Below the pieces are notes generated by a model. The model did not search any database and had not been told where the DNA came from. It saw nothing but the letters and a program-made list of their open reading frames with translations. This document shows, piece after piece, positions 50,287 through 64,000 of a stretch of 64,000 nt of DNA. Source of the DNA: Candidatus Aceula meridiana (lineage in GTDB: Bacteria > Omnitrophota > Gorgyraeia > Zapsychrales > Aceulaceae). The first letter of the stretch is position 1, and each line of letters opens with the position of its first letter. The stretch lies in the NCBI GenBank assembly GCA_030765185.1, contig JAVCDE010000024.1, positions 251,538 through 315,537 on the forward strand. Direction: 5' to 3'. The translations under genes and the position numbers were made by a program.

Positions 50287-50958
50287 TTATCTAGCCTTTC
50301 TTAAAATGAATTTATACGCTAGAAGTGTAAATCCAAGGTAAGAAAAGTTATAAACAAAATCTTCTAGAGGAATAGAAATGATACGCAGCCCCCCAATAAA
50401 TTGGGGATTATACTGAACAACCGGGATGCCGGTTAAAATCCCGTTAAAAATTACAAATGGAATATAACAAATCAGGATATATCGCCAAAAATTTAGAGAA
50501 AAAAGAATATTCGGAAAGAATTTAACAGCAATAAAGAAAAATCCGGCCGTTGCGATAAAAGCCAAGGCAGTATAAGCTTGAGCATAACAAGCAAGGGCCA
50601 TTCCCAAAAAGAAAAGAATAACCCCATAAACACGATTTTCTTTAAAAGTAATTATTTTATCTTTCTTAAAATAGTTTATGACTTCATAGACAAAAAGACA
50701 ACTAAACGGCGTGGTGATAAAAAATAGTATTTCCTCTACCGGAAGATTAAAAATTCGCAGATGCCCTACATAGCGGGGATTAAAAGCCCAATGACCGTTG
50801 GCCGTAGCTACCATATCCCAAACAATATACAAAACGCCGACTGTTAGGATAGAAAAAAAGACCGCTGGCCACCTTTTAACATACCGGACCCGACTTTCGA
50901 AGGACAACAAAAGCGGAATACTAATAATAAAAATATTTAAAGAGAGATAAAAACTCAT
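50287..50958 (-). CDS. Lycopene cyclase domain protein (fused CrtYc/CrtYd-type, 7 TM)
   Basis: Two repeats of the lycopene-cyclase domain with the NLPVEEILFF and SIPLEDFVY motifs; 223 aa. Confidence 0.7.
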   Translation of the reverse strand: MSFYLSLNIFIISIPLLLSFESRVRYVKRWPAVFFSILTVGVLYIVWDMVATANGHWAFNPRYVGHLRIFNLPVEEILFFITTPFSCLFVYEVINYFKKDKIITFKENRVYGVILFFLGMALACYAQAYTALAFIATAGFFFIAVKFFPNILFSLNFWRYILICYIPFVIFNGILTGIPVVQYNPQFIGGLRIISIPLEDFVYNFSYLGFTLLAYKFILRKAR

Positions 50959-51045
50959 CGTTAAAAACTATTGTAAGTGAACGCTTAAATGTAAGCAAAC
51001 AAATTTTTTCTTGGTTTTTATACCGGCTCCCATTACAATAAATTT

Positions 51046-51933
51046 GTGACAAACAAATCAAAAAAACTTGCTCAAAAAGGTTTTGTCCAAGCTAAAGCTA
51101 TCACGAAACAAGCTTCCCGAACATTTTATTTTGCGTCTTGTTTCTTGCCGAGAAAAAAGCGCCTTGCCGCTTATAGCATTTATGCCATATGCCGCTTAAG
51201 TGATGAAGCCGTTGACGGCCCTCAAGAACAAAAAAAACAATCACTAGAAGATATTCGTCAAAACATTCAGCAGGCCTATGGGCTTATTGAAATCACAGAC
51301 CCCCTTCTTTTTGCATTTCGCGCAACAGTCCAGGCCCATGGAATCCCCAAGAAATATTTTGATGAGTTAATTAGCGGTATGCGGATGGATTTAACTAAAA
51401 CACGTTATCAAAATTTTAACGAACTTTATCCTTATTGCTATAAAGTCGCCGGCGTAATTGGCCTTATTATGCTTAAAGTTTTCGATTATGAAAATATTAT
51501 TGCCGAAAAATACGCTGTAGATTTAGGAGTGGCCATGCAGTTGACGAACATCTTAAGAGATATAAAAGAAGATTGTAGCCGTGGCCGCATCTATTTGCCT
51601 ATCGATGAACTTGCAAAACAAAGAATTCATGATGAAAATATTCAGAACAATATTGTTGATGATAAATTCAAGAATCTAATAAAATTTCAGATAAAACGTG
51701 CCCGCTCTTATTATGTTCAAGCCAGCTATGGTATTGATCTCATTACAGATAAACGCTGTCGCCTTGTGGCCTTCTTGATGCTAGAACTTTATGCGGGAAT
51801 CTTAAAAAAGATAGCAGAAAATAACTACGACGTGTTTAAGCAAAGGGCTTGCGTTCCCTCCAAGCAAAAATTTGCCTTATTACCGGGCTTGATGATCCGG
51901 TTTGCCCGAGGCAAATTCCTTTTTACTGGCTAA
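51046..51933 (+). CDS. crtB: Phytoene synthase (squalene/phytoene synthase family); GTG start
   Basis: YCYKVAGVIGLIML and DLGVAMQLTNILRDIKEDCSRGRIYLP aspartate-rich motifs; 295 aa. Confidence 0.88.
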   Translation: MTNKSKKLAQKGFVQAKAITKQASRTFYFASCFLPRKKRLAAYSIYAICRLSDEAVDGPQEQKKQSLEDIRQNIQQAYGLIEITDPLLFAFRATVQAHGIPKKYFDELISGMRMDLTKTRYQNFNELYPYCYKVAGVIGLIMLKVFDYENIIAEKYAVDLGVAMQLTNILRDIKEDCSRGRIYLPIDELAKQRIHDENIQNNIVDDKFKNLIKFQIKRARSYYVQASYGIDLITDKRCRLVAFLMLELYAGILKKIAENNYDVFKQRACVPSKQKFALLPGLMIRFARGKFLFTG

Positions 51934-53359
51934 TCATATCCGCAACAATTTTTGACGATGCAATCACAACCGGCAGGCCTCCTCCGGGTTGTGTGCTAGC
52001 ACCGACATAATAAATATTTTTATAATTGGCGTCTTGATTGGCAGGCCTAAAAAACGCGCTTTGCATCAAATTGTGAGCCAGGCCAAAGGTTGCGCCATAT
52101 TTGATGTTGTATTGAGTAATAAAGTCTTTAGGATAAAATTTGTGTTCAACTTCAATTAAGTCTTCGATATTCTCGCCTGTCACTTCATTAATTTTTTGAT
52201 AAATAATCTTTTTGAGCTTTTCCTCATAATTCTTGATGTCATCTTCCTTTCCCTTAAGGTTCGAGACTGGAATAAGGATATAGACAATTTCTTTATTCTT
52301 CGGTGCCAAGGATGGGTCCGTTACCGTCGGGACGTGGATATAAAAGGACGGGTCATCGGGCATAATATTTTTCTTAAAAATATCTTCTAAATTCTTATTA
52401 AGGTCATTGGCAAAAAATAAATTATGGTGATCAAGTCCGTTTAGTTTTTTTGATAACCCTAGATACAACAAAAAAACAGAGCAAGAATACCGATAATCCG
52501 GAATCTGCCGTCTAAAAATATTTGTCTGCGCATAAGGAAGGTCCGCGTTGATAACAACCTCATCAAAAACTTGCGGCTGGCCTTGTGCCTGAAGGGCAAC
52601 CCCTTTTCCTCGCGGGTATATGGATCTTATCTCACAATTATAATGAAACACGGCTCCGTTTTTCTTTGCGATTTTCTCAAGAGCTTTCGGAATTTCGTAC
52701 ATCCCTCCCATTGGATGCGCAATTTTCTGTACATGGTCTGAATATGTGATGATGCTGTAAAACCCAGGCGCCTCATAAGGCGAAACCCCCATAAACATAG
52801 CCTCAAAAGTAAAAGCATAACAGAGCTCTTCACTTTTAAAAAACTCTTTGGCGAGCTTCCAGTATGATTTAAAAGGCTCAAGGTCAAACAAAAGCCTCCA
52901 ATGTTTTGGATTCAAAAGCTTTGAAGGTGTAAAGCATTCGTATAAAAGCGGCTCAACGGCTTTATAATACTTTTTAGTTTTCTTAATAAATTCATCAAAG
53001 CCAACAGAGCTGTTGGGTTCAAATTCTTCTATCTCCTGCTTCGTCTTTTCACAGTCTTTATGAACAGTTAAAACTCTTTTGTCAGGATAAAAAATCTTAT
53101 AATTGATATCAAGGACTTTTAAGTTAAGATGGTCTTCAATCTTCTCACCGCAATCATCAAAAACTTCCTTAAAAAAATCCGGCATTAAAACAAACGAAGG
53201 CCCCATATCAAATTTAAAACCCTTATCTTCCAACATGTGACAACGGCCACCGCATTCACCCAACTTCTCAAAAACTTCAACATCATGGCCTCTGCAAGCC
53301 AAACGTGCCGCGGTAGCCAGCCCTCCAACGCCGGCACCAATAACAGCAATCCTTTTCAT
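51923..53359 (-). CDS. crtI: Phytoene desaturase
   Basis: N-terminal IAVIGAGVGGLATAARLACRGHDVEVFEK FAD fold; 478 aa. Convergent 11-nt overlap with crtB. Confidence 0.88.
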   Translation of the reverse strand: MKRIAVIGAGVGGLATAARLACRGHDVEVFEKLGECGGRCHMLEDKGFKFDMGPSFVLMPDFFKEVFDDCGEKIEDHLNLKVLDINYKIFYPDKRVLTVHKDCEKTKQEIEEFEPNSSVGFDEFIKKTKKYYKAVEPLLYECFTPSKLLNPKHWRLLFDLEPFKSYWKLAKEFFKSEELCYAFTFEAMFMGVSPYEAPGFYSIITYSDHVQKIAHPMGGMYEIPKALEKIAKKNGAVFHYNCEIRSIYPRGKGVALQAQGQPQVFDEVVINADLPYAQTNIFRRQIPDYRYSCSVFLLYLGLSKKLNGLDHHNLFFANDLNKNLEDIFKKNIMPDDPSFYIHVPTVTDPSLAPKNKEIVYILIPVSNLKGKEDDIKNYEEKLKKIIYQKINEVTGENIEDLIEVEHKFYPKDFITQYNIKYGATFGLAHNLMQSAFFRPANQDANYKNIYYVGASTQPGGGLPVVIASSKIVADMISQ

Positions 53360-53369
53360 TCTTCTCTCC

Positions 53370-54239
53370 TTATTCTAAACAAATAAAAAAACATTCTCCG
53401 GAATTAATGTCAATGGCTAATTCATTGCCCGGATCAAGCTCAAAAGCCTTGTTTATTAATTCTTCGTATTTTTTCATGTCCCCTTTTTTCTTATAAATCT
53501 GGGCAAGCCGCACATAGGGATTAGCAAAAAGTGGGTCTGCTGCAATGGCTTTTTCTAAATACCCTTGAGCTTTATCAAAATTTTGGCCAAGCGCAACCGA
53601 AACAAGCATGTAATAACTTCCTAACCCAAAATTAACAACCGGTGAATCAGGAGCAAGTTTTTGAATAATGTTAAGATGCTTTAAAACCCCTGCTCCGTTG
53701 ATGGCCTTTGAAATCGGGCCACCATAATGAGCAATCATGCCCTTGGCCGCAGCATAAAGTCCGTGCGCTCTTAGGAAATTTGCCTCATCGACATTCTCCC
53801 GGCGCTGATTAATGACTTGGCCGGTTAACCGAATGCTCCCATCAAAATCTTTTTGAATATACCGAATATATGCTAATGTAATCAATGCCGGCGAATAGCT
53901 GGAATTTTCTTTAATAATTTTCTCGAGCATGCCTGCCGCCTCATCTGTTTTATGTTCTCGCCTTAAAATCTCAGCTATTCCCCAGCGCCCCTCAATGCTT
54001 TTGGGGTCAAGTTCTAAAACTTTTTCAAAGACTGCTTTAGAATTTTGTATTTCATAAAAGTTTAAATAGACAAGGCCTAAAACATAAAGATGGTCTATAG
54101 AATTGGGATTTTGGGCAAGTTCTTCTTGCGCTGTCGCAAGGTCAATTAAGTCAGCCTTGTTATGTAAATCTTTCCATTCAAGCGCAAAGCACGAGGTTAC
54201 CAACAAGAAAAAAACTAATAAAATTCCTAAAGTTTTCAT
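53370..54239 (-). CDS. Secreted tetratricopeptide-repeat protein
   Basis: Signal peptide MKTLGILLVFFLLVTSCFA; several TPR units. Confidence 0.75.
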   Translation of the reverse strand: MKTLGILLVFFLLVTSCFALEWKDLHNKADLIDLATAQEELAQNPNSIDHLYVLGLVYLNFYEIQNSKAVFEKVLELDPKSIEGRWGIAEILRREHKTDEAAGMLEKIIKENSSYSPALITLAYIRYIQKDFDGSIRLTGQVINQRRENVDEANFLRAHGLYAAAKGMIAHYGGPISKAINGAGVLKHLNIIQKLAPDSPVVNFGLGSYYMLVSVALGQNFDKAQGYLEKAIAADPLFANPYVRLAQIYKKKGDMKKYEELINKAFELDPGNELAIDINSGECFFICLE

Positions 54240-55537
54240 TCTTGTTCTCTTCTCGGGTCTTTTAAAAACTGAACAATATCTTTTTTAAAGAAGAGCGCCA
54301 AGACCCAGGAAATCCAGACGCGTTTTTTCTTTTCCAAGCGAGGCAGCTTCATTAAATAAACATCACGCCATAAAAGCCATGCCAAAAGGCCTTTAATCTT
54401 AATCCCAAAAATTGACGCAACCCCTTTAAAGCCTCCGATGTTGGCCAGCTGGCCCAAGGATTGAAACGTAAAAAGTTTTTTAGGTTGATTTTTAATCTCA
54501 GCGATAAGATTTTGAGCTAATGCTTTTGCCTCACGTGTAGCGTGTTGAGCCGTCGGAGGATGAGCCCCTCCATTTTGAGTATTGGGAACATACGCGCAAT
54601 CGCCTAAAGCCCATACTCCCTGATGGTCCGGCACCTGAAAATATTTATCGATAATAACGCGGCCTTTTTCTTTAGATAAACCTAAAGCATCAACAACAGG
54701 GCTAATGGTATTGCCAGCTGTCCAAATAATATTGGAAGAATCGACAACCTCATCTGTGCTTAAACCCACCTTGTTATCTGAAAAATCAACAACCTTTGTA
54801 TTCAACTTTATTTCAATTCCTCTTTTTTCAAAAGCTCTTTGGGTATAAACGCCTAAATCCTGATCCATTTCAGGTAAAAGCGTATCCCCCGGATGGATTA
54901 AAACCATGCGCAGCATTTGTTTTGTTAAATTTGGATACCAACAAATAGCGTCTTTGGCCAGGTCATCAACTGCCCCCATGGTTTCTACGCCGGTAAATCC
55001 GCCGCCGGCGACAACAAAAGTTAGAATCTTTTTTTGTAAGCCTTTGTCTTTTATGGAATCAGCTTGCTCAAGGCAGCTAATAATACGGTTTCGAATGGCA
55101 ATGCCATCATGTAAGCTTTTCATCGTGAGAGCGCCTTGCTCTAAATTCTTATTGCCAAAAAAGTTTGGCACAGCCCCTAACGCCAATACCACGTGATCGT
55201 AAGAAATTTCTCTCCTGGAAGATTCAAGGAAAATTTTCCTTACCTTTAGGTCAGCGGAAACAACTTCCGCTTTGATGAATTTTGTATATCTTAAAAGCTT
55301 GCGAAGAGGATTGGCAATGCTGATGCCACCTAAACTGCTCGAGGCAACCTCGTGTAGCATAGGCGTAAAAAGGAAGAAATTCTCTTTGTCGATAAGCGTT
55401 ATCTCGGCGGGCAAACCCTTTTTAACGGCTTTCTCAAGCTCAAGAGCCGTATAGAGCCCTGAAAAGCCGCCGCCTAAAATAACAATTTCTTGTAAGTTTG
55501 ATGAGGGCATTCTTATTTTTGCTTTCGAAGGTGGCAA
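54236..55537 (-). CDS. Type II NADH:quinone oxidoreductase (NDH-2)
   Basis: IVILGGGFSGLYTALEL and VVAGGGFTGVETMGAV dinucleotide folds; C-terminal amphipathic membrane anchor; 433 aa. Confidence 0.85.
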   Translation of the reverse strand: MPPSKAKIRMPSSNLQEIVILGGGFSGLYTALELEKAVKKGLPAEITLIDKENFFLFTPMLHEVASSSLGGISIANPLRKLLRYTKFIKAEVVSADLKVRKIFLESSRREISYDHVVLALGAVPNFFGNKNLEQGALTMKSLHDGIAIRNRIISCLEQADSIKDKGLQKKILTFVVAGGGFTGVETMGAVDDLAKDAICWYPNLTKQMLRMVLIHPGDTLLPEMDQDLGVYTQRAFEKRGIEIKLNTKVVDFSDNKVGLSTDEVVDSSNIIWTAGNTISPVVDALGLSKEKGRVIIDKYFQVPDHQGVWALGDCAYVPNTQNGGAHPPTAQHATREAKALAQNLIAEIKNQPKKLFTFQSLGQLANIGGFKGVASIFGIKIKGLLAWLLWRDVYLMKLPRLEKKKRVWISWVLALFFKKDIVQFLKDPRREQE

Positions 55538-55962
55538 ATAATTCCGTCTAAAGATAGCTTTCCGCTGCCATATTGCAAAAAGACAAACGCGCTTAGGGCA
55601 ATCATTGCCGGATAATAAAAATCATCAGGATGAACTTTGGCAACCGCAACAATCATAATAATGATAACAGGAACAGCTGCGATACGGCTTAAAAACCCAA
55701 TAGCGAGAAGCCCGCCGCAAATAATTTCTGACCACCCGACAACATAGGCCATCATCTTAGGAAATATAATTCCTAGCGTCGATAAATATCCTCCAAAAGC
55801 AGCCAAACCCGGCCCGTCAAACATGCCATATACTTTTCCTAATCCTGCTTTAATGAAAATCCAAGCCACAAAAAGTCTTAATATCCCAATGCTCCATCCG
55901 GTATAAAAACAGCATTTCCCGTTCGTCTCGTGTGTCATTTTCTCCTCCTTCAATGAAGCCAT
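55513..55962 (-). CDS. DoxX-family membrane protein (true start likely the second ATG at about 55938, behind GAAGGAGG)
   Basis: DoxX fold LRLFVAWIFIKAGLGKV...; 4 TM. Confidence 0.8.
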   Translation of the reverse strand: MASLKEEKMTHETNGKCCFYTGWSIGILRLFVAWIFIKAGLGKVYGMFDGPGLAAFGGYLSTLGIIFPKMMAYVVGWSEIICGGLLAIGFLSRIAAVPVIIIMIVAVAKVHPDDFYYPAMIALSAFVFLQYGSGKLSLDGIICHLRKQK

Positions 55963-56032
55963 AGTTTACGGAGCAACAGCGGTCGTAAACTATATGGCTG
56001 AATTGATCCCGTGCACGTAAGTGCATCGGGAT
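55962..56032 (-). promoter_or_regulatory. Structured 5' leader element, copy B, upstream of DoxX
   Basis: Hairpin 1 is ATCCCGTGCAC/gtaa/GTGCATCGGGAT at 56006-56032 with the same bulged T as copy A. Hairpin 2 is TAGTTTACG...CGTAAACTA at 55962-55992. The 13-nt spacing between hairpins is identical in both copies. Confidence 0.55.
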
Positions 56033-56037
56033 TTCCT

Positions 56038-57444
56038 CTATTTAAAACAATACGGATCTTTGTCTTTTAAAATATCTTTTTTGCAACCGCTTGTAACCGC
56101 TAAGCATCCTCCGCACGCATGACGCAAAGAACATCCATCGCATTCTTTGGCCCCTCTGCGATATCTTTTTGCCATCTTTGAATCATAAATTTCTTGAAGG
56201 CTCTGTTTTAAAATATTTCCTATCAAAGACGGAAACTTGCGGCAGGCATGCACTTCTCCGTCGGCGAGAACAGCTACAAAATTAAATGCAGCGCCGCACC
56301 CAAACCCTGTACAGCCACTAAACAGTTTATCATTCTCACGCTCTAAAACAATATTAATTAAATTATCTTTAAAACCTATAATCGGATTTGTCTCTGACGC
56401 TTTGATATATTCCTCTAAAAACCGCTGATAATCTTCTTTTTTCGGAAGCCCTAAACCCTCCCCCTCTCCTGTTTGCGACAAACGATTAAATGTAAAATAT
56501 TCTGCATGCCCTCTAAGTTTCTTAGCTAAAGGTAGAATCTGGCTCATATTCTCTTTTGTCAAAGTCAGCATCACCGCAGAAGAAATCTTTAACTCTCTTA
56601 AAATCTTTAAAAACTTTATCACAGCGCTAAAATTATTTTTTCCTCGAATATAATCGTTATGTTCAGGTAACCCTTCCAGGCTAACCTGGTAATATCCGGG
56701 CTTTTGAATCTCAATAACTTTTTTTAAATCTTCCCTTGAAACAGGATTGCCTAAAATAGATGTTGAAAATCCCTTTTGCTCAGCTCTTTTATAAAGTTTA
56801 AAGAAATGAGGAGATAAAAATGGATTCCCTCCTGAGAAACAGACATGCCCTCGGACGCGGTTTGTCCGAGTAAAGCGCTCGAGGCCATCAAGAACCTTAT
56901 ACCCTTGCTCTAATGTAAAAGGTGAACGTCTTGTTCTGTCGTAGCAATGTTTGCAATGCAAATCGCAAACATTCGTAATATGCCATTGCAGGGTGAATGT
57001 ATCAGAAATAATAAATTTTTGATCAATATTCTTTGTATTCTTAAAAATTCGCGTATTTCGTTTTAGCTTTGGCGTTGGCTTTAAAATGATTCCTTTTTTT
57101 GCGGCTCTTTTTAAGTTTAACTCAAGCGCCTTAACGGAGATGTTTCCTTGTTGCGCGGCTTGTTCTAGAGAAATATTTTCAGCCACCATTTTAAGCGCTA
57201 AAAGTTCTTCTTTTGAAGCCGGCTTAGCTTGAATACTTACGTCTCCTTGTTTTTTCCAAACAAGAAGCCATTCTTTTTGTTTTTTAGGATTCGTTCGTGA
57301 TTGTGAAAATTTCCAATTGGAGAGAAAAATTTCCAAGGTAGGATTGATTTGGAAATTGTTTACCTTTTTAGGCCAGTGCGGCTTTAGAGAGAAAACTTTT
57401 CTTTCAAGCTTTTCAAGTTTTTGAAGTTCTTTAGTAAAATCCAT
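56038..57444 (-). CDS. Radical SAM / SPASM-domain enzyme with a 150-aa N-terminal extension carrying a sigma70-region-4-like HTH (candidate peptide/protein-modifying maturase)
   Basis: HITNVCDLHCKHCY (CxxxCxxC) at about residue 160. C-terminal SPASM Cys array GCTGFGC...HAC...ECDGCSLRHACGGC...SGC...YCF. N-terminal ISLEQAAQQGNISVKALELNLKRAAKKG resembles a region-4/RRE-like helix-turn-helix. Confidence 0.8.
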   Translation of the reverse strand: MDFTKELQKLEKLERKVFSLKPHWPKKVNNFQINPTLEIFLSNWKFSQSRTNPKKQKEWLLVWKKQGDVSIQAKPASKEELLALKMVAENISLEQAAQQGNISVKALELNLKRAAKKGIILKPTPKLKRNTRIFKNTKNIDQKFIISDTFTLQWHITNVCDLHCKHCYDRTRRSPFTLEQGYKVLDGLERFTRTNRVRGHVCFSGGNPFLSPHFFKLYKRAEQKGFSTSILGNPVSREDLKKVIEIQKPGYYQVSLEGLPEHNDYIRGKNNFSAVIKFLKILRELKISSAVMLTLTKENMSQILPLAKKLRGHAEYFTFNRLSQTGEGEGLGLPKKEDYQRFLEEYIKASETNPIIGFKDNLINIVLERENDKLFSGCTGFGCGAAFNFVAVLADGEVHACRKFPSLIGNILKQSLQEIYDSKMAKRYRRGAKECDGCSLRHACGGCLAVTSGCKKDILKDKDPYCFK

Positions 57445-57456
57445 AATATAGTAATA

Positions 57457-57487
57457 AAGGGCCCCCGCTTAATCAGCGGGGGCCCTT
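57457..57487 (-). terminator. Very strong GC hairpin (partial terminator or attenuator) between the Cys/Met-rich protein gene and the rSAM gene
   Basis: AAGGGCCCCCGC / ttaatca / GCGGGGGCCCTT, a 12-bp perfect stem. U-rich sequence follows on both strands. The rSAM start 13 nt downstream has no purine-rich SD. Confidence 0.65.
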
Positions 57488-57512
57488 GTTTCATGCATTT
57501 CTTTCTAAGATT

Positions 57513-57956
57513 TTATTTTCCGCAGGAGCCTTTACCGCAAGAAGATTTGGCATCTTCATCCATCTCTTCGTCTTCAGTCATTACATCTTCCTCTCCCATC
57601 ATCTCCCCTTCGTCCATATCCTCATCTTCGCCCACCATTCCATTTTCGCCCATATCCTCGTCTTCAGCTGCCATTTCTTCCTCGCCCATGGCTTCATCAT
57701 CTGCCATCATTTCGTCTTGTTCAACCATTTCATCTTCAGCGGCTTCTTGAGCAACAGCTTCTTTTTCAGCAGCTTCCATTTTTGCCCCACAAGAACCTTT
57801 ACCGCAAGAAGCTGTTCCTTCTTCAGCAGCCTTACCACAAGAACCTTTGCCGCAACTCCCCTTACCGGCAAAAACGTCTTTAACAACGCCAAAGCTTGCC
57901 ACAAGGCTTGCGATGCTAATCCCTGTTAAAATCTTTTTAATTTTTCTCTTGTCCAT
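57513..57956 (-). CDS. Sec-secreted 147-aa protein: three SCGKGSCG repeats (6 Cys) flanking a hyper-acidic, periodically Met-rich 90-aa core; candidate rSAM substrate and/or periplasmic Cu/Ag-binding protein
   Basis: Signal peptide MDKRKIKKILTGISIASLVASFGVVKDVFA. Mature protein GKGSCGKGSCGK...ASCGKGSCG...(E/D-x-M heptad-like repeats)...SCGKGSCGK. Strong RBS GAGGAGG and its own consensus promoter. Confidence 0.75.
   Translation of the reverse strand: MDKRKIKKILTGISIASLVASFGVVKDVFAGKGSCGKGSCGKAAEEGTASCGKGSCGAKMEAAEKEAVAQEAAEDEMVEQDEMMADDEAMGEEEMAAEDEDMGENGMVGEDEDMDEGEMMGEEDVMTEDEEMDEDAKSSCGKGSCGK
57520..57860 (-). repeat. Intragenic direct DNA repeats (three copies of the about 25-nt Cys-motif-encoding unit; short-period CATCTTC-type repeats in the acidic core)
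   Basis: ccacaagaacctttaccgcaagaag, ccacaagaacctttgccgcaact and ccgcaggagcctttaccgcaagaag recur at 57786-57810, 57835-57857 and 57520-57545. Confidence 0.6.
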
Positions 57957-57972
57957 CTGTTCCTCCTCATTA

Positions 57973-58039
57973 ATCCCGCGCGCGGGACTTTCTTGGTTTA
58001 TAATAAAGCAATTATACCAACTGCCCTAACGGTGTCAAT
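57973..58039 (-). promoter_or_regulatory. Consensus sigma70 promoter TTGACA-16-TATAAT (minus strand) followed by a 14-bp perfect GC palindrome TCCCGCGCGCGGGA in the 5' UTR of the Cys/Met-rich protein gene
   Basis: -35 at 58034-58039 and -10 at 58012-58017 (reverse complement). Palindrome at 57973-57986, about 20 nt before the RBS. Confidence 0.6.
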
Positions 58040-58066
58040 TGGTTTCACGCCTATCAGGATTATCTC

Positions 58067-61000
58067 TTAAGATTGCTCTTTTTGTAATTTTCGCTCTTTC
58101 ATCCAGCTATATAAAACAGGAACAAGAATTAAATTAGCTGCTGTTGCCGTCAGCAACCCTCCTACGGTCGGCGCGGCCATCGGCTTCATGACCTCTGAGC
58201 CTGTTCCGCTTGAGAACATTACAGGCATTAAGGCAATAATCGTTGTCATGGTTGTCATAAGGGCTGGGCGTACCCTCTGAAGGCCAGCCCTTATGACAGT
58301 CTGGCGTATTTCTTCAATTGTTTTTGGCAATTTTTCCTTAAATAAATTCTCTAAAGTTGAAAGCAACACAACCGCATTATCTGTCGCGACTCCAAAAAGT
58401 GCAATAAAACCAACCCATACGGCTGTAGAAAATCGAAAATTCAAAAGAAACAAAAGAATAACACCGCCGGTAAGCGAAAGCGGCAATACCGCAGTTAAAA
58501 TCCCTAAAATTTTTATGTCTTTAAATGCCATGTACAGCAAAACTAAAATAACCATTAAGGCAAGCGCCATCGAAGGCAACAAGCGCTTTCTCGATTCCAT
58601 CTCAGCTTCAAATTGCCCCGACCAGCTGATAAAGTATCCGGTAGGAATTTTAAGATTCCCTCGGCTTATCTCTTTCTGAACAGTTTCTTGCGCTTTCTTA
58701 ACAAAATCAACCAACCCAATCTGGCTTTGATTCACATTAATAAAAACGCGGCCATAAGGCACCGTGTTTTCCGAAAAAATCATCGACGGTCCGGCAACAG
58801 TTTTAAATTCCGCTAATTGAGCCAAAGGAATTTGCGCAGGCTTAGGCGCGTTACGCCAATGCCAACGGGTCGGCACAAAAATTCTCTTTAAGGCTTCTGG
58901 ATCATCGCGAAGCTCCCGCAGATACCGGACTCTCACCGGATACCGCTCTCGGCCCTCCACCGTGGTTGTGATATTCATCCCCCCGATGCCTGACATAATT
59001 AAGTCCTGAATATCTTGAACATGGATACCATAACGCGCTGCCTGCGGGCGGTCAATCTCAATCTCAAAATAAGGGCGCCCGCCGATGCGCTCAGCGTAAG
59101 GCGAGACCGCACCCTCAACACGGCCAACAATCTGTTCGAGTTGAATACCGATTTTCTCGATTTCTTTTAAATCCGGCCCAAAAACCTTAATCCCGACGGG
59201 CGTCTGAATGCCTGTTGCGAGCATATCAATGCGGTTGCGAATCGGTTGCGTCATAATAGGACTGACACCCGGCATTTTTGTTTTTTGCTGGATTTCATCG
59301 ATAATTTTCTCCCGGGTCATCCCTTTACGCCAATACTTTTTATTTTTAAGGTGGATAATTGTTTCAATCATTGTCACCGGGGCCGGGTCCGTGGCCGTTT
59401 CGGCGCGCCCCAGCTTTCCGACAACACCCTCAACTTCAGGAATTTCATTTTTAATAATGATATCCTGCTTTTGCATCACATCCGCGACTTGCGTCAGAGA
59501 AGCGCCAGGAAGCAAGACAGGCATAAACAACAAATCGCCTTCGTTTAAAGGCGGCATGAATTCTTGTTTCATTAGCACGCTGAAAATAAGCCCCACGGTA
59601 AAGACCGCTAACGCAATAAAAACAATCACGCGTTTATGTATCAAAGCCCAGCCTAGCAAGGGCTTGTATTTTCCATGTAAATATTTAGCGGTTTTATTTT
59701 CTTCAACGGGTTTTAGCTTTCCCTTTAACGCAAAATAGCTTAACGTCGGCAAAAGCGTTAAAGCAATAATCGCGGCGGCCACCATGACAAAAGTTTTGGT
59801 ATAAGCAAGAGGGCTAAAAAGTTTTCCGGCCTGCCCGGTTAAAACAAAAACCGGAATAAAACTAACAATCGTCGTTAAAAGGGCAAAAAGCACAGGCCGG
59901 CCCACTTCGCCTGCCGCGTCACTGCAGATCTTTAACCGGTTTTCTGAAGTCAGGTTTTCTGTCGAGTGCTCGGAGAGCTTGCTGTAGATATTTTCGACCA
60001 TGACGCAACCCGAGTCGACCATAACGCCGATAGCAATCGCGATGCCACCTAAAGACATAATATTGGCATCCACGCCAAATTGCTTCATAAAAATAAACGC
60101 AATCAAAATACCAATCGGCAAAACAGCCGCAATGACAAGGCTCCCCCAAAAATGAAGAAGAAAAACAACAATCACAAAAATTGTAATAATAATTTCCTGA
60201 ATGAGTGCGCTAGAAAGCGTATGAATAGAGCGATGGATAAGTCCTGTGCGGTCATAAAAAGGAACAATCTTCATCCCCTTAGGAAGTCCGACTTCGATTT
60301 CCTGAATTTTTTTCTTTACTCTCTCAATAACTTTTAAAGGATTTTCGCCGTAGCGCATGACCACAACTCCGCCGGTGGCTTCCCTACCTTCTTTATCCAA
60401 AACACCTCTTCGAAAATCCGCCCCTAAGGCTACACGTCCGATGTCTTTAATGGTCACGGGCGTTCCCGCATGCACGCCGATGACAATATCTTCGATATCT
60501 TTAATGCTTTTAATAAAACCGAGGCCGCGTACAACATATTCGACGCTATTTTGCTCAAAGACTTTTGCGCCCACGTCAATATTGGATAACTTGATCGCCT
60601 CCATAACGTGCAAAAGGCTGACGTCATAAGCAAATAATTTGTTCGGGTCGACATCCACCTGATATTGCTTGACGTACCCACCGACGGAAGCCACTTCGGA
60701 GACACCTTCAACGCTCGTCAATTGATAGCGGACATACCAATCTTGGATAGAACGCAATTCTTCCAAGGAATACCCATCGCCCTCAACCGTATACCAGAAA
60801 ATCTGACCCAAGGCCGTCGCATCCGGCCCTAAAGAAACACTGACATCTTTAGGAATATTTTTTTTAGCTAAATCAAGTCGCTCTAAAACACGTGTTCGGG
60901 CCCAGTAATAATCTGTCCCTTCTCGAAAAATCATATTAACCAAGCCAAAGCCAAAACCAGACGACGAACGAACCACTTTGACTTTCGGCGTTCCCATGAG

Positions 61001-61216
61001 CCCTGTTGTCAAAGGATAGATCACTTGGTCCTCAACATCCTGTGGGCTGCGCCCTGGCCAGTCTGCATATACAATAACCTGAAGCTCGCCGATATCCGGA
61101 ATTGCATCAACAGGGGTTTCTTTCATGGAAGAAAACCCTAGAATCATCATCAACACAAAAACCGATAAAACAAGAAATCGATTACGGATACATGTTTCAA
61201 TAATGCGATTAATCAT
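58067..61216 (-). CDS. cusA: Heavy-metal efflux RND pump, CusA/CzcA family
   Basis: 1049 aa, 12 TM, HME-RND architecture. Context csoR-cusC-cusB-cusA. Confidence 0.88.
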   Translation of the reverse strand: MINRIIETCIRNRFLVLSVFVLMMILGFSSMKETPVDAIPDIGELQVIVYADWPGRSPQDVEDQVIYPLTTGLMGTPKVKVVRSSSGFGFGLVNMIFREGTDYYWARTRVLERLDLAKKNIPKDVSVSLGPDATALGQIFWYTVEGDGYSLEELRSIQDWYVRYQLTSVEGVSEVASVGGYVKQYQVDVDPNKLFAYDVSLLHVMEAIKLSNIDVGAKVFEQNSVEYVVRGLGFIKSIKDIEDIVIGVHAGTPVTIKDIGRVALGADFRRGVLDKEGREATGGVVVMRYGENPLKVIERVKKKIQEIEVGLPKGMKIVPFYDRTGLIHRSIHTLSSALIQEIIITIFVIVVFLLHFWGSLVIAAVLPIGILIAFIFMKQFGVDANIMSLGGIAIAIGVMVDSGCVMVENIYSKLSEHSTENLTSENRLKICSDAAGEVGRPVLFALLTTIVSFIPVFVLTGQAGKLFSPLAYTKTFVMVAAAIIALTLLPTLSYFALKGKLKPVEENKTAKYLHGKYKPLLGWALIHKRVIVFIALAVFTVGLIFSVLMKQEFMPPLNEGDLLFMPVLLPGASLTQVADVMQKQDIIIKNEIPEVEGVVGKLGRAETATDPAPVTMIETIIHLKNKKYWRKGMTREKIIDEIQQKTKMPGVSPIMTQPIRNRIDMLATGIQTPVGIKVFGPDLKEIEKIGIQLEQIVGRVEGAVSPYAERIGGRPYFEIEIDRPQAARYGIHVQDIQDLIMSGIGGMNITTTVEGRERYPVRVRYLRELRDDPEALKRIFVPTRWHWRNAPKPAQIPLAQLAEFKTVAGPSMIFSENTVPYGRVFINVNQSQIGLVDFVKKAQETVQKEISRGNLKIPTGYFISWSGQFEAEMESRKRLLPSMALALMVILVLLYMAFKDIKILGILTAVLPLSLTGGVILLFLLNFRFSTAVWVGFIALFGVATDNAVVLLSTLENLFKEKLPKTIEEIRQTVIRAGLQRVRPALMTTMTTIIALMPVMFSSGTGSEVMKPMAAPTVGGLLTATAANLILVPVLYSWMKERKLQKEQS

Positions 61217-61237
61217 GTTCTCTCCTTAAAAATATTA

Positions 61238-62410
61238 CTACATTTGCATTCCGGGCATTCCGGGCATCGCGGAAGCCGCTGGTTGCTTTTTCTCATTACC
61301 CAAGGCCCCGGAAAAAGCCGAAGACGCAACCCCGGTAATTTGACTTTGAGAATCAATCAAAAAATTACCTTGCGTGACGACCCGCTCCCCTTCGTTTAAT
61401 CCTTTTAAAACCGGATAAAATTTTCTTGGATTATCCGAATGGTCAATGGCTTCAGGCCCCACAGTAACTTTACGCCCCTCGAATTGCCCATCACCTTTAT
61501 CAACCCATACAATTTGTCGCCGACCGGTATCCAAAAGCGCGCTTTTAGGAATAGATAAAACGTCCATATTCCCGTTATCGTCTTGATACTGGCTCATAAT
61601 TTCAATATCAACATACATTTCCGGTTTTAATTTTTTCTCCGGATTATCGACCAAGGCGCGAAAACGAACAGACCGAGTCTGAGGATCAACCACAGGATTA
61701 AGGGAAACAACTTTTCCGTAAAACTCTTCTCCTGCCAAGCTCAAAGGGCTCACCTTAACATAAGCGCCTTCTTTAACCCAGTTAAGTTCATATTCATAGA
61801 CATCACCATAAATCCACATCTTGTCTCCCGGCAAAACCAAATTGTTTTGAACTTTTTTTGATTTTTGCAGGCCATCAATTTGTTCCTGGCTTAGGCCCAT
61901 CAAAAGAAGCTTGCGCTGCGAAGAGTCCACCAAAGATTTGGCCCTATCCACGATTTCTTCAATGCCGCCGGAAAGAGCTTTTTCGTAAGATTGAACTGAA
62001 GAAATAAATTCATCCTGTGCAACGGCTAACTGCGGGTCATAGGCAACGCGCCCAACAGCCCGAATTTCCTTAAAAAGCTGCCGCTTTTCAATAGGCTCGG
62101 TTTTAACGCCGGCCAACTTTAATTCAGAGGCCTTAAGCGCAACCTGGCTTATGACATTTTCATCCGATGTCTCCATGTTCATGCTTGACTTTATTACCGG
62201 CATTAACGGCATAAAACAAATCGGACACTTCGTATCCCCTTTTTCATAGTTTTCAACCGTCACCTTAACGCTCGGATGCATGCCGCAAGTATAATAAGAT
62301 ATCGGCTCATCAAGACCTTGATGGTTCACATGATTCTGTTGAGCGAATAGTTGCGTTGAAAACATCAACGTAAAAAGAATGACGAGAGCAACCCTTATAA
62401 TCTTTTCCAT
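61238..62410 (-). CDS. cusB: RND membrane-fusion adaptor (CusB-like) with N-terminal YTCGMHP heavy-metal-binding domain and Met-rich C-terminal tail
   Basis: YYTCGMHPSVKV...CPICFMPLMP (HMBD). C-terminal AMPGMPGMQM. Confidence 0.85.
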   Translation of the reverse strand: MEKIIRVALVILFTLMFSTQLFAQQNHVNHQGLDEPISYYTCGMHPSVKVTVENYEKGDTKCPICFMPLMPVIKSSMNMETSDENVISQVALKASELKLAGVKTEPIEKRQLFKEIRAVGRVAYDPQLAVAQDEFISSVQSYEKALSGGIEEIVDRAKSLVDSSQRKLLLMGLSQEQIDGLQKSKKVQNNLVLPGDKMWIYGDVYEYELNWVKEGAYVKVSPLSLAGEEFYGKVVSLNPVVDPQTRSVRFRALVDNPEKKLKPEMYVDIEIMSQYQDDNGNMDVLSIPKSALLDTGRRQIVWVDKGDGQFEGRKVTVGPEAIDHSDNPRKFYPVLKGLNEGERVVTQGNFLIDSQSQITGVASSAFSGALGNEKKQPAASAMPGMPGMQM

Positions 62411-62419
62411 TTCTCCTCC

Positions 62420-63691
62420 TTATAAATCTCTTCCAACCATTTGTTCTAAATAAGCAATTGCTTTTCGATAATCAACAATCGATTTATAATACGCCAAACG
62501 CGTCTGAAGATATGTCCGCTCGGCATCAAGCCAATCAATAAAAGAAATTCCGCTGGTTTCAAACCCTGTCTGTGAACCGTCAAAAGCCTGTTTGGCCTGA
62601 GGCAACAGGGCTGTTTCATATAAAAGGACGACGTCCTTGTAGGCTATAATTTTAAAATAAGCGTCCTTCACTTCAAGTTCAGCTTGATTTTCGACTTGCT
62701 CTTTATTTTTTTGAGCTGATTTTAATTGAGCCTCTTTTTCTTTGACTTGAGCATCTAATTTCCAAAACCATATCGGAACATTAACCGAAACCATAGCTGC
62801 CCAGGCATCCTGTCCGTCATCCATAGAAGTCGTCGTGCCGCTGCCGATTTCGATATATTCTGCCCCGATCGTAAAATTCGGCAAATATGCCATCTTCGAT
62901 AAAGTTTTTTCCTTCTGGGCCTTTTCAAATAAGAAATCAGCTTCGATTAAATCCTGACGGGTTTCTTTTGCATATCCTAACAATTCATCAAGATTATAAG
63001 AGAAGGAAATGTTCTTTAACGATAAAACCTTATTGATTTCTCCGCCTGAGGGGTTGTTGATTAGGGTATTAAGTTTTACGCTTAGACTTTCTCTGTTCTG
63101 CTTTAACAAAAATATCTTCTGAAGAATTTTAGAAAGTTCCACCTGGATCTTAAGAATGTTTTGTTGCGTTCCAAGGTTAGACTCGTATTTCTTCTGAGCC
63201 GAGCCCTCTAAATCTTCCAGGATAGATTTTTCTTCTTCGTTTATTTCGATTGATTTATCTACCCAAAATAAATCATAGTAAGTAGCTTTTACCTGGGCAA
63301 TAATGGCACGTCTTGCTTTTTCATATTCTTGTTCAAGCATCTTGGCCTGCGCGGCCTGGGCCTTTCCCTTTAAGCTTAATTTTCCCGGGAAAGGAATCTT
63401 TTGAGAAACATTGAATTTTTGCTCCTGCGGCCCCACGCGGGTTTGCACTTCTTCGCCAAAATAGGTATAACCGACCATCGGATCGTCTAAAGCGCTAATG
63501 CTTTGCGTTTTGTATTGTTCGGCCTTCCACTTCTGATAAACCTGCTGGATTTGTGGATTGTTTTCTAAGGCCTCCTGAACAAAGCGGTCAAGAATGCTTT
63601 CTCCTTTATCCTGGCCAAAAGAAAAACAAGGCAAAAAAATTAAGCTTAGAATTGCTATAAAAATAAATTTAAAATAACGATTGGGATTCAT
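62420..63691 (-). CDS. cusC: Outer-membrane efflux channel (TolC/CusC family)
   Basis: Signal peptide; two OEP repeats; 423 aa. Confidence 0.85.
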   Translation of the reverse strand: MNPNRYFKFIFIAILSLIFLPCFSFGQDKGESILDRFVQEALENNPQIQQVYQKWKAEQYKTQSISALDDPMVGYTYFGEEVQTRVGPQEQKFNVSQKIPFPGKLSLKGKAQAAQAKMLEQEYEKARRAIIAQVKATYYDLFWVDKSIEINEEEKSILEDLEGSAQKKYESNLGTQQNILKIQVELSKILQKIFLLKQNRESLSVKLNTLINNPSGGEINKVLSLKNISFSYNLDELLGYAKETRQDLIEADFLFEKAQKEKTLSKMAYLPNFTIGAEYIEIGSGTTTSMDDGQDAWAAMVSVNVPIWFWKLDAQVKEKEAQLKSAQKNKEQVENQAELEVKDAYFKIIAYKDVVLLYETALLPQAKQAFDGSQTGFETSGISFIDWLDAERTYLQTRLAYYKSIVDYRKAIAYLEQMVGRDL

Positions 63692-63692
63692 T

Positions 63693-63971
63693 TTAACCCC
63701 CGCAATGTTTATTTAAAATGTTGATAACTTCGTTAATTTTCTCCTGCTTTTCAACTTGAGACTGGCCTTTAAGCGTATCAGCAACACAACTTTCTAAATG
63801 TTTTTGAAGAATCTTTTCCTTAACCCTACTGATTGCTTTTGTAACCGAACGAATTTGAATTAGTACGTCAATGCAATAGCGCCCTTCTTCAATCATTCCT
63901 TGGATACCGCGAACTTGTCCCTCAATTCTTTTAAGAGCATTAATCTGTTCTTTATGACTTGAATGTTTCAT
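63693..63971 (-). CDS. csoR: CsoR/RcnR-family metal-sensing repressor with a Cu(I)-type C-H-C ligand set
   Basis: KRIEGQVRGIQGMIEEGRYCIDVLIQ...KHLESC: Cys about 31 and His-x3-Cys as in CsoR; 92 aa. Confidence 0.85.
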   Translation of the reverse strand: MKHSSHKEQINALKRIEGQVRGIQGMIEEGRYCIDVLIQIRSVTKAISRVKEKILQKHLESCVADTLKGQSQVEKQEKINEVINILNKHCGG

Positions 63972-64000
63972 AGCGTTCTCCTTTTCAATGCAAGGATACC

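Follow-up and report, generated by a model that had tools for sequence, protein, structure and literature searches.

A Cys-only SbtA/SbtM thiooxazole locus beside CsoR–CusCBA in Candidatus Aceula meridiana: a possible periplasmic Cu(I)/Ag(I) buffer

The SbtA/SbtM thio(seleno)oxazole system, which we take to be Haft's 'selenobiotic' family and whose chemistry reportedly originates with Lewis et al. 2021, pairs a precursor, SbtA, with a radical S-adenosylmethionine (SAM) maturase, SbtM. NCBIfam names the two proteins 'SbtA family thio(seleno)oxazole RiPP natural product precursor' (TIGR04081; RiPP, a peptide made by the ribosome and then modified post-translationally) and 'thio(seleno)oxazole modification radical SAM maturase SbtM' (TIGR04082). 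SbtM removes four hydrogens per Cys or selenocysteine (−4 Da), with the appearance of a 304-nm chromophore, and builds a 5-thio(seleno)oxazole from that residue and the preceding carbonyl while the thiol stays alkylatable (PMC9204691; PMC11002830; PMC13638132); Cys is accepted in vitro (PMC9204691). Oxazolin, the modified HvfA protein of Haemophilus influenzae, has a Sec signal and three AEGKCGEGKCG repeats in which six of six Cys are modified, binds roughly one Cu(I) for each pair of modified Cys and shares its operon with a DoxX gene, HvfX (PMC11252979); its heterocycle was later reassigned as 5-thiooxazole (PMC12668002). Bufferins, thiooxazole proteins that Sec exports to the periplasm, give protection against copper and commonly have DoxX in their clusters (PMC11626156; PMC12452194). 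Here we analyse a stretch of 64,000 nucleotides (nt) of Candidatus Aceula meridiana (Omnitrophota) DNA, referred to throughout as the window, in which a gene for a small secreted Cys-rich protein (57513–57956) and the maturase gene after it (56038–57444) lie beside csoR and cusCBA. Sequence comparison makes it nearly certain that these genes are sbtA and sbtM, a Cys-only version of the known system. Our best explanation as a whole, to which we give a probability of about 0.55, joins this identity to a thiooxazole mechanism and a role as a Cu(I)/Ag(I) buffer.

Residues 1–24 of the window SbtA match TIGR04081 at 34.2 bits (cutoff 30.5), and the protein scores 42.2 bits against a home-built hidden Markov model (HMM) of SbtA leaders; precursors homologous to it bear Pfam PF27804 (GSU1558_StbA-like). 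The gene lies directly upstream of sbtM on the same strand, with a gap of 69 nt. The sbtM product contains the Pfam domains Radical_SAM and SPASM and matches TIGR04082 at 668.6 bits (cutoff 350), the next family, ACGX radical SAM, reaching 153 (cutoff 400). A 100%-identical protein (P0003) from Candidatus Aceula meridiana has already been named SbtM by NCBI. An exact-protein look-up gave no match for the window SbtM or for P0003 and, for SbtA, matches to three contigs of less than 1 kb. The original prediction for this DNA had correctly read a precursor followed by its radical SAM/SPASM maturase, and the family search that it proposed for the 147-residue protein and the enzyme returned the TIGR04081 and TIGR04082 matches given above. 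It did not recognise the pairing as a described system, but the pairing is already described, curated and named, and is not new.

The window SbtA consists of a leader, MDKRKIKKILTGISIASLVASFGVVKDVFA, followed after the predicted cleavage point by GKGSCGKGSCGKAAEEGTASCGKGSCG, an 80-residue core and a C-terminal SSCGKGSCGK (Table 1). Its six Cys form three C-x4-C pairs, all within three exact SCGKGSCG units placed, as had been predicted, two at the N-terminus and one at the C-terminus. Every Cys stands in an S-C-G context and is encoded by TGC or TGT (6/6), with no in-frame TGA codon, and no selenocysteine tRNA or other tRNA gene occurs in the window. The codons of the three units vary at synonymous positions, and it is therefore the peptide that is conserved, not a recent DNA duplication that is seen. 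When the protein is aligned with 16 Cys-type SbtA homologues, S34, C35, G36 and G38 of cassette 1 are invariant and S39 is shared by 90% or more of the sequences. The core is 47.5% Asp plus Glu and 16% Met; the earlier figure of about 50% acidic residues was close, but the core is 80 residues long (58–137) instead of 90. Its 13 Met are spaced 5–7 residues apart (mean 6) and not every 7–8 as first described, and this regularity arises from a 36-nt tandem repeat that encodes a unit of about 12 residues, EDEDMGExGMVG, with two Met per unit (2.3 copies at 57608–57689 by Tandem Repeats Finder). A largest-gap shuffle test of the Met periodicity against chance was uninformative (p = 0.63).

The N-terminus has the anatomy of a Sec signal, with the n-region MDKRKIKK, a hydrophobic stretch of 17 residues and a V-F-A/G cleavage site, so that the earlier call of a Sec signal peptide stands as a rule-based prediction. 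Cleavage after VFA would leave a mature protein of 117 residues with a net charge of −31. AlphaFold2 modelled SbtA with low confidence (mean predicted local distance difference test (pLDDT) 55) and no stable fold, a Pfam scan of the protein returned no domain match, CusF included, and both His and Trp are absent from its sequence. On these grounds, namely the lack of a Pfam match, of His and Trp and of a confident fold, we rejected CusF as the identity of SbtA. The sbtA ATG lies 5 nt downstream of a GAGGAGG ribosome-binding site.

The AlphaFold2 model of SbtM (pLDDT 93.6) comprises an N-terminal beta3-alpha3 domain, a radical SAM barrel and a SPASM domain. Across 57 homologues the C160-x3-C164-x2-C167 motif is invariant, as are C378, C383, C401, C435, C438, C444, C447 and C466. 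In the N-terminal domain, strands 38–42, 58–64 and 71–75 precede helices 78–88, 93–100 and 104–116. In Foldseek the full-length model matches best to the RiPP maturases CteB, SuiB and SkfB, with anSME and PqqE next; CteB and SuiB bear a RiPP recognition element (RRE). The nearest solved relative by both sequence and fold is the thioether synthase CteB. We regard the modelled N-terminal domain of SbtM as a candidate RRE-like peptide-recognition domain. The window SbtM (468 residues) and an 83%-identical relative lack about 45–60 N-terminal residues of most homologues (about 530 residues), and the TIGR04082 alignment of the window protein begins at model position 44.

To place the window SbtA within its family, we surveyed 161 other SbtM loci (80 each from GTDB genomes and metagenomes, and 1 reached through a protein hit) with the leader HMM, which was built from 20 leaders and separates SbtA open reading frames (ORFs) by a score gap of 17 versus 8 bits. 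SbtA was detected in 139 loci, as 149 ORFs with 131 distinct sequences. Most of the ORFs stand a few hundred nt ahead of sbtM on its own strand, and others stand elsewhere in the locus. By reactive residue, 98 of 147 are selenocysteine-only, 24 mix Cys and selenocysteine and 25 are Cys-only. The reactive residue (U, selenocysteine) stands in the context [S/G]-[C/U]-[S/G], most commonly SUS (80), GUS (60), SCS (57) and SCG (52). A lipobox-like Cys ends the leader in 75 of the 131 distinct proteins and the remainder have signal-peptidase-I-like sites; the whole family looks to be exported. Conservation across phyla marks the leader as something beyond an ordinary signal peptide, and SbtM probably uses it as a recognition sequence as well.

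At 147 residues, against a median of 79, the window SbtA is the longest of the 131. It also ranks first in acidic fraction, with 0.34 of the mature chain (0.23 in the runner-up), and in number of Met, with 13 (6 in the runner-up). A HMMER search of residues 1–60 against 1.84 billion representative proteins gave 18 matches, all of 55–104 residues, among which the long acidic core was not found; most of them are laid out as leader, lipobox, SCGxGSCG, a short spacer and SCGKGSCG. To judge from these alignments, the SCGKGSCG cassette is a hallmark of the Cys-type SbtA subfamily, and the 80-residue acidic Met-rich module with its third cassette is evidently an elaboration peculiar to the Aceula clade. 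The closest SbtM in GTDB genomes and Joint Genome Institute (JGI) metagenomes is 55–58% identical to that of the window, and the closest metagenome locus (L085, 57%) has no recognizable sbtA upstream. Twelve loci carry two tandem sbtA genes (L029, L032, L035, L041, L052, L053, L054, L059, L089, L144, L153 and L161), frequently one with a lipobox leader and one with a signal-peptidase-I-type leader. A Cys-type SbtA in L002 (9266–9652) contains five tandem GSCGGGTMEK units, with a Met beside each Cys site.

A protein search identified a close relative (L165/L166) with an SbtM 83% identical to that of the window. Its SbtA, seen in L166, has the same leader and the same three cassettes with synonymous differences, and the C-terminal AKSSCGKGSCGK is identical in P0001 and L166. 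The L166 core is again acidic and Met-rich and follows the same 12-residue logic with another sequence (MMGEDESMDENE three times). L166 also retains the promoter block, a 5′ untranslated region (UTR) hairpin of different sequence and, with its stem unchanged, the GC-rich sbtA-sbtM intergenic hairpin. Comparison of the two loci indicates that the elaborated SbtA design is under selection. Directly upstream of the sbtA promoter, L166 has a 3′ remnant of cusA (2866–2947) that covers the last 26 or so codons, ATIANLIFVPVLYSWMKELMLKKVQS and the stop; beside it lie a ChrA-like half-transporter, a DUF2490 gene and a membrane protein gene. The remnant records that cusCBA was deleted or replaced; cus adjacency was ancestral in the L166 lineage yet is dispensable.

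From published SbtM chemistry and the thiooxazole peptides made by multinuclear nonheme iron oxidase (MNIO) enzymes we draw the following mechanism, in which we infer modification, export and metal binding of the window SbtA from its sequence and by analogy. In the cytoplasm, SbtM would bind the conserved leader through its RRE-like N-terminal domain and, using two SAM per site, would oxidize the S-C-G Cys residues to 5-thiooxazoles, at −4 Da each and up to −24 Da for all six. The leader would then serve as the Sec signal and be cut after VFA, releasing a largely disordered protein into the periplasm. Each cassette would offer two thiooxazole N,S donors five residues apart, mirroring oxazolin KCGEGKCG, and the thioethers of the 13 core Met would be further ligands for Cu(I)/Ag(I). 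In an anaerobe, by a route independent of O2, this would yield a buffer of high capacity for periplasmic Cu(I)/Ag(I), beside a CsoR-regulated CusCBA pump. A strong promoter of its own and a conserved hairpin would keep the precursor in excess over SbtM. More speculatively, DoxX and a type II NADH dehydrogenase (NDH-2)-like oxidoreductase might couple thiols to the quinone pool. As a separate claim, the function itself, the buffering of periplasmic Cu(I)/Ag(I) alongside CusCBA, is a tentative assignment by analogy that we place somewhat below even odds.

The window supplies a copper context on the upstream side of sbtA. The CsoR-type repressor has C33, H58 and C62 in a C-25-H-4-C spacing, which we take to be the ligand pattern of Cu(I)-sensing CsoR. 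The CusA-type pump scores 840 bits to Escherichia coli CusA versus 564 to ZneA, and retains Met at the positions aligned to the three-Met cluster M573, M623 and M672 of E. coli CusA. The intergenic gaps of the cus operon measure 9 and 21 nt, and it therefore contains no cusF. The CusB-like adaptor has a Cys-rich N-terminus (YYTCGMHPSV...CPICFMPL) and a Met-rich C-terminus (AMPGMPGMQM), and these ends may substitute for a separate CusF. The original prediction had placed SbtA after csoR-cusCBA 'in place of CusF'; the part that stands is an upstream cus operon without cusF, but sbtA has a promoter of its own and does not occupy the cusF position, and cus is absent in the relative.

The neighbourhood search that had been proposed produced a leader-HMM SbtA ORF in those 139 SbtM loci but cusCBA next to sbtAM in just 6 of 161 (L007, L034, L049, L145, L154 and L158). 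With the window included, all seven cus-adjacent precursors are Cys-only (7/25 versus 0/122 selenocysteine or mixed types; Fisher p = 2e-6), but the seven loci fall into only two independent clades of the SbtM tree, and the p value therefore overstates the support. The two clades, with three gene arrangements between them, are Desulfobacterota (two arrangements) and Aceula. In L034, L049, L145, L154 and L158, of the Desulfobacterota clade, sbtA-sbtM is followed directly by cusC-cusB-cusA on the same strand, and in L007 cus lies upstream on the opposite strand; the cus-adjacent Desulfobacterota SbtA proteins are of a short Cys-only lipoprotein type, for example ...KTSCSGGMSSCSIGGKTSCGG. We did not count L005 (cusA 73% identical) as cus-adjacent, as 8 kb of unrelated genes separate cusA from sbtA. 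The strongest argument for a copper role is the parallel with MNIO-made thiooxazole peptides.

Several observations, together with the small number of clades, weigh against a copper role. The biological function and final product of the SbtM pathway are stated to be unknown (PMC9204691), and cus adjacency is rare, at the 6 of 161 loci just counted. SbtM neighbourhoods are heterogeneous: clustering the neighbours of 80 loci revealed no universal one, and sbtA is the sole constant partner. The cus operon is gone in L166, where sbtA-sbtM-doxX persists without an adjacent pump. No CsoR operator was found at the sbtA promoter, the window providing only 29 nt upstream of csoR. As to DoxX, its gene follows sbtM only in the Aceula clade, its sole NCBIfam match, the HvfX-family Cu-binding-RiPP maturation protein, reaches 61.8 bits against a cutoff of 80, and DoxX is dispensable for bufferin function (PMC11626156). 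The acidic core could equally bind hard cations.

The main rival to a copper buffer is a different soft-metal or redox role, in which SbtA/SbtM would still make a thiooxazole protein, now as a general soft-metal or chalcogen ligand that handles Hg, Cd, Zn, Ni or selenide/polysulfide, or as a thiol/selenol carrier of redox equivalents in the periplasm, linked to DoxX and the NDH-2-like oxidoreductase, with cus adjacency a local accident. Most SbtA proteins use selenocysteine and have unrelated neighbours (MsrA, DedA, mercuric-reductase-like oxidoreductases and signalling proteins), the close relative has no cus operon and a ChrA-like gene upstream, sbtA has its own promoter, and the conserved genes downstream encode redox proteins and not copper proteins. 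On the other side, cus-adjacent loci are Cys-only in seven of seven cases from two clades with three arrangements, the cassette is close to the copper-binding cassette of oxazolin, and an abundance of Met is characteristic of Cu(I)/Ag(I) ligation. We judge this rival unlikely, but by no means negligible.

Far less probable is a function carried by the acidic core, either binding hard cations (Ca2+, Mg2+ or Fe3+) or acting as a solubility or spacer module, with the cassettes either the sole metal-relevant part or unmodified. A core of 47.5% Asp plus Glu, a net charge of −31 and the lack of a predicted fold would suit such a function. A pure spacer, however, would not need 16% Met, and both the Met enrichment and the 12-residue periodicity are kept in the relative despite the changed sequence.

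The original prediction had instead expected QhpD- or PapB-like Cys-to-Asp/Glu thioether cross-links, at −2 Da each, that would give a cross-linked chaperone. SbtM is a SPASM-type radical SAM enzyme whose nearest solved relative is the thioether synthase CteB, and the core is rich in Asp and Glu. The score against the SbtM equivalog nevertheless far exceeds its cutoff (668.6 versus 350), and we rejected thioether-forming families for SbtM on their models' scores: 71.9 for the PapB ranthipeptide model (cutoff 340), 54.8 for AlbA (850) and 61.6 for StsB (625). Characterized SbtM makes a thiooxazole, at −4 Da, whose thiol is still free for alkylation (PMC9204691), and by analogy the same conversion would be expected at each site of the window SbtA. 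The typical Cys-type SbtA has the cassettes with little or no acidic core, and Asp/Glu therefore cannot be required cross-link partners. Thioether cross-linking is thus highly improbable here, and of the earlier proposal of a cross-linked periplasmic Cu/Ag buffer or chaperone the cross-linked part falls; the buffer or chaperone part is plausible in view of the CsoR-CusCBA neighbours and the parallel with copper-binding thiooxazoles. Equally improbable is that SbtA yields a bioactive RiPP, secreted or anchored to lipid, with an antimicrobial or signalling function outside metal homeostasis; such a product would fit the RiPP layout, the strong promoter and the attenuator hairpin between precursor and enzyme, but not the absence of an adjacent dedicated protease or ABC exporter, an export signal of general Sec or lipoprotein type, a 117-residue product of charge −31 unlike known antimicrobial RiPPs, and the fact that all characterized thiooxazole peptides bind metal.

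Table 1. Features of the sbtA-sbtM locus and its surroundings (positions in the window)
Feature	Coordinates	Strand	Evidence or remark
csoR-type metal-sensing repressor	63693..63971	-	Pfam Trns_repr_metal, 94.5 bits; best NCBIfam match RicR
cusC-like outer-membrane factor	62420..63691	-	Pfam OEP, two matches
cusB-like periplasmic adaptor	61238..62410	-	Pfam HlyD_D23 (CusB barrel-sandwich); partial NCBIfam CusB/CzcB
cusA-type heavy-metal resistance-nodulation-division (RND) pump	58067..61216	-	TIGR00914, 1026 bits
sbtA promoter, TTGACA-16 nt-TATAAT, extended -10 TG	58011..58038	-	12/12 sigma-70 consensus positions
14-bp perfect palindrome TCCCGCGCGCGGGA in sbtA 5′ UTR	57974..57987	.	Sole exact occurrence in window; RNA hairpin or operator
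sbtA, 147-residue Cys-type SbtA precursor	57513..57956	-	ORF translation; TIGR04081 match; homologues with Pfam PF27804
Leader / Sec-type signal peptide, residues 1-30, predicted cleavage VFA/G	57867..57956	-	Hydropathy; n/h/c regions
SCGKGSCG cassette 1, residues 34-41	57834..57857	-	Alignment with 16 Cys-type SbtA homologues
SCGKGSCG cassette 2, residues 50-57	57786..57809	-	Nearly invariant in Cys-type alignment
Acidic Met-rich core, residues 58-137	57546..57785	-	Composition; Met spacing; Tandem Repeats Finder
SCGKGSCG cassette 3, residues 139-146, C-terminal	57519..57542	-	Sequence; C-terminus comparison
GC-rich hairpin then UUUAUU, sbtA-sbtM intergenic, likely leaky terminator/attenuator	57456..57488	-	Folding; comparison with L166
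sbtM, radical SAM/SPASM thio(seleno)oxazole maturase, 468 residues	56038..57444	-	TIGR04082; Pfam; AlphaFold2
doxX, DoxX-family membrane protein, 75 nt after sbtM	55513..55962	-	Pfam DoxX, 66.4 bits
NDH-2-like pyridine-nucleotide-disulfide oxidoreductase, overlaps doxX by 25 nt	54236..55537	-	Pfam Pyr_redox_2, NDH2_C
Tetratricopeptide repeat (TPR) protein, N-terminal signal or lipobox, overlaps oxidoreductase gene by 4 nt	53370..54239	-	Synteny with L165/L166

The doxX, NDH-2-like and TPR genes follow sbtM in the same order in L165 and L166, and a tblastn search (E < 1e-3) found none of the three near sbtM in the other 161 loci bar one weak TPR match. Beyond the TPR gene lie carotenoid genes (50287–53359) for a phytoene desaturase, a phytoene synthase on the opposite strand and a lycopene cyclase domain, and the gene order from doxX to the carotenoid genes recurs in L165 and L166. 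Pfam and NCBIfam scans detected no MNIO (DUF692) or DUF2063 protein among the eight genes of 53370–63971, and neither a dedicated protease nor an ABC exporter beside sbtA. Among the 80 loci whose neighbours were clustered, recurrent clusters (for example GGDEF, MsrA-like, DedA-like and response regulator proteins) occur in at most 9 each and, judged by eye, seem lineage-specific.

The sbtA promoter is the sole site with 12/12 consensus positions in 53000–64000. It stands after the cusA stop and ahead of the sbtA start, and sbtA, having its own promoter there, cannot be regarded merely as the final cus operon gene. Its spacer, CCnTTAGGGCnGnTGG, is kept in L166, and this conserved spacer could reflect an operator that overlaps the promoter. 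The palindrome TCCCGCGCGCGGGA sits just ahead of the sbtA ribosome-binding site, and L166 has another, ATGCACTTCGTGCAT, at the corresponding place in its 5′ UTR; structure rather than sequence seems to be kept there. A search for a second copy of TCCCGCGCGCGGGA as a shared operator found none in the window. The hairpin between sbtA and sbtM has a minimum free energy of −30 kcal/mol (z = −5.3 versus shuffles) and ends 14 nt ahead of the sbtM ATG, a start that lacks a Shine–Dalgarno sequence. Its flanks differ in L166, where the stem is identical, and it probably holds enzyme output far below that of the precursor, as in other RiPP systems. A sub-threshold Rfam match of this hairpin to OrzO-P was taken as chance.

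If Cys-type SbtA/SbtM systems are the anaerobic counterpart of the MNIO-made copper chelators, SbtA/SbtM would gain its first physiological role, a periplasmic Cu(I)/Ag(I) buffering that feeds or backs up Cus efflux, and one metallophore chemistry would have evolved convergently in oxic and anoxic settings. MNIO enzymes need O2, whereas SbtM is an oxygen-sensitive radical SAM enzyme found mostly in anaerobes, which suggests that anaerobes, barred from the O2-dependent enzymes, reach the same metal-binding heterocycle by a radical SAM route. The locus is unusually informative in this respect, with a Cys-only precursor, cassettes close to those of oxazolin, a Met-rich acidic module, DoxX and adjacent CsoR-CusCBA; it offers a testable link between radical SAM and MNIO thiooxazole systems and a hint at the role of the family.

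Among known systems, small periplasmic proteins are familiar companions of cus, sil and pco efflux genes. SilE and PcoE, disordered Met-rich metal sponges, use motifs of His and Met and carry no post-translational modification, and CusF folds as a beta-barrel whose metal site is Met2-His-Trp; the window SbtA has neither His nor Trp. The maturases CteB, SuiB and SkfB share with SbtM the layout of an N-terminal domain, in SbtM a candidate RRE-like one, followed by radical SAM barrel and SPASM domain, but they are 16–20% identical to it and their products are thioether or C–C cross-links, not oxazoles. Within the SbtA/SbtM family itself, the window pair resembles other members in its matching leader, a precursor upstream of the maturase and a low-complexity core region with [S/G]-[C/U]-[S/G]-G sites. 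It differs in being Cys-only, as are 25 of the 147 typed precursors, in having a signal-peptidase-I-type site instead of the commoner lipobox, and in its third cassette, 80-residue acidic insert, shorter SbtM N-terminus and flanking CsoR-CusCBA and DoxX genes.

The bufferins of Caulobacter (BufA/B/C/D) resemble what we propose for the window SbtA in being periplasmic Sec-exported RiPPs whose Cys become copper-chelating 5-thiooxazoles, often with DoxX present. They differ as small folded proteins (DUF2282 or Buf_6/12Cys) that are made by an MNIO enzyme, are regulated by SigF/NrsF and have zero sequence similarity to SbtA. The likeness to oxazolin (genes HvfA/HvfB/HvfC/HvfX), captophorins and Buf_EGKCG is closer: a Sec signal, three di-Cys C-x4-C cassettes and a Gly after each Cys, with KCGEGKCG and SCGKGSCG having Cys spacing and Gly positions in common, a DoxX-family gene in the cluster and a copper context in both, and 5-thiooxazole as the product expected of SbtA too. 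Oxazolin is, however, matured by an O2-dependent MNIO (DUF692) enzyme with a DUF2063 partner, in contrast to the O2-sensitive radical SAM/SPASM enzyme of the window, and has no acidic Met-rich module. It is conceivable by this analogy, though we would not bet on it, that Cys-type SbtA/SbtM systems, that of the window most clearly, are the anaerobic radical SAM counterpart of the O2-dependent, MNIO-made oxazolin and bufferin chelators. A C-G-x-G-x-C-G cassette, a probable thiooxazole warhead, predicted Sec export and, for the window, a DoxX-family gene are common to Cys-type SbtA and the MNIO chelators, and the enzymes that would make them are unrelated.

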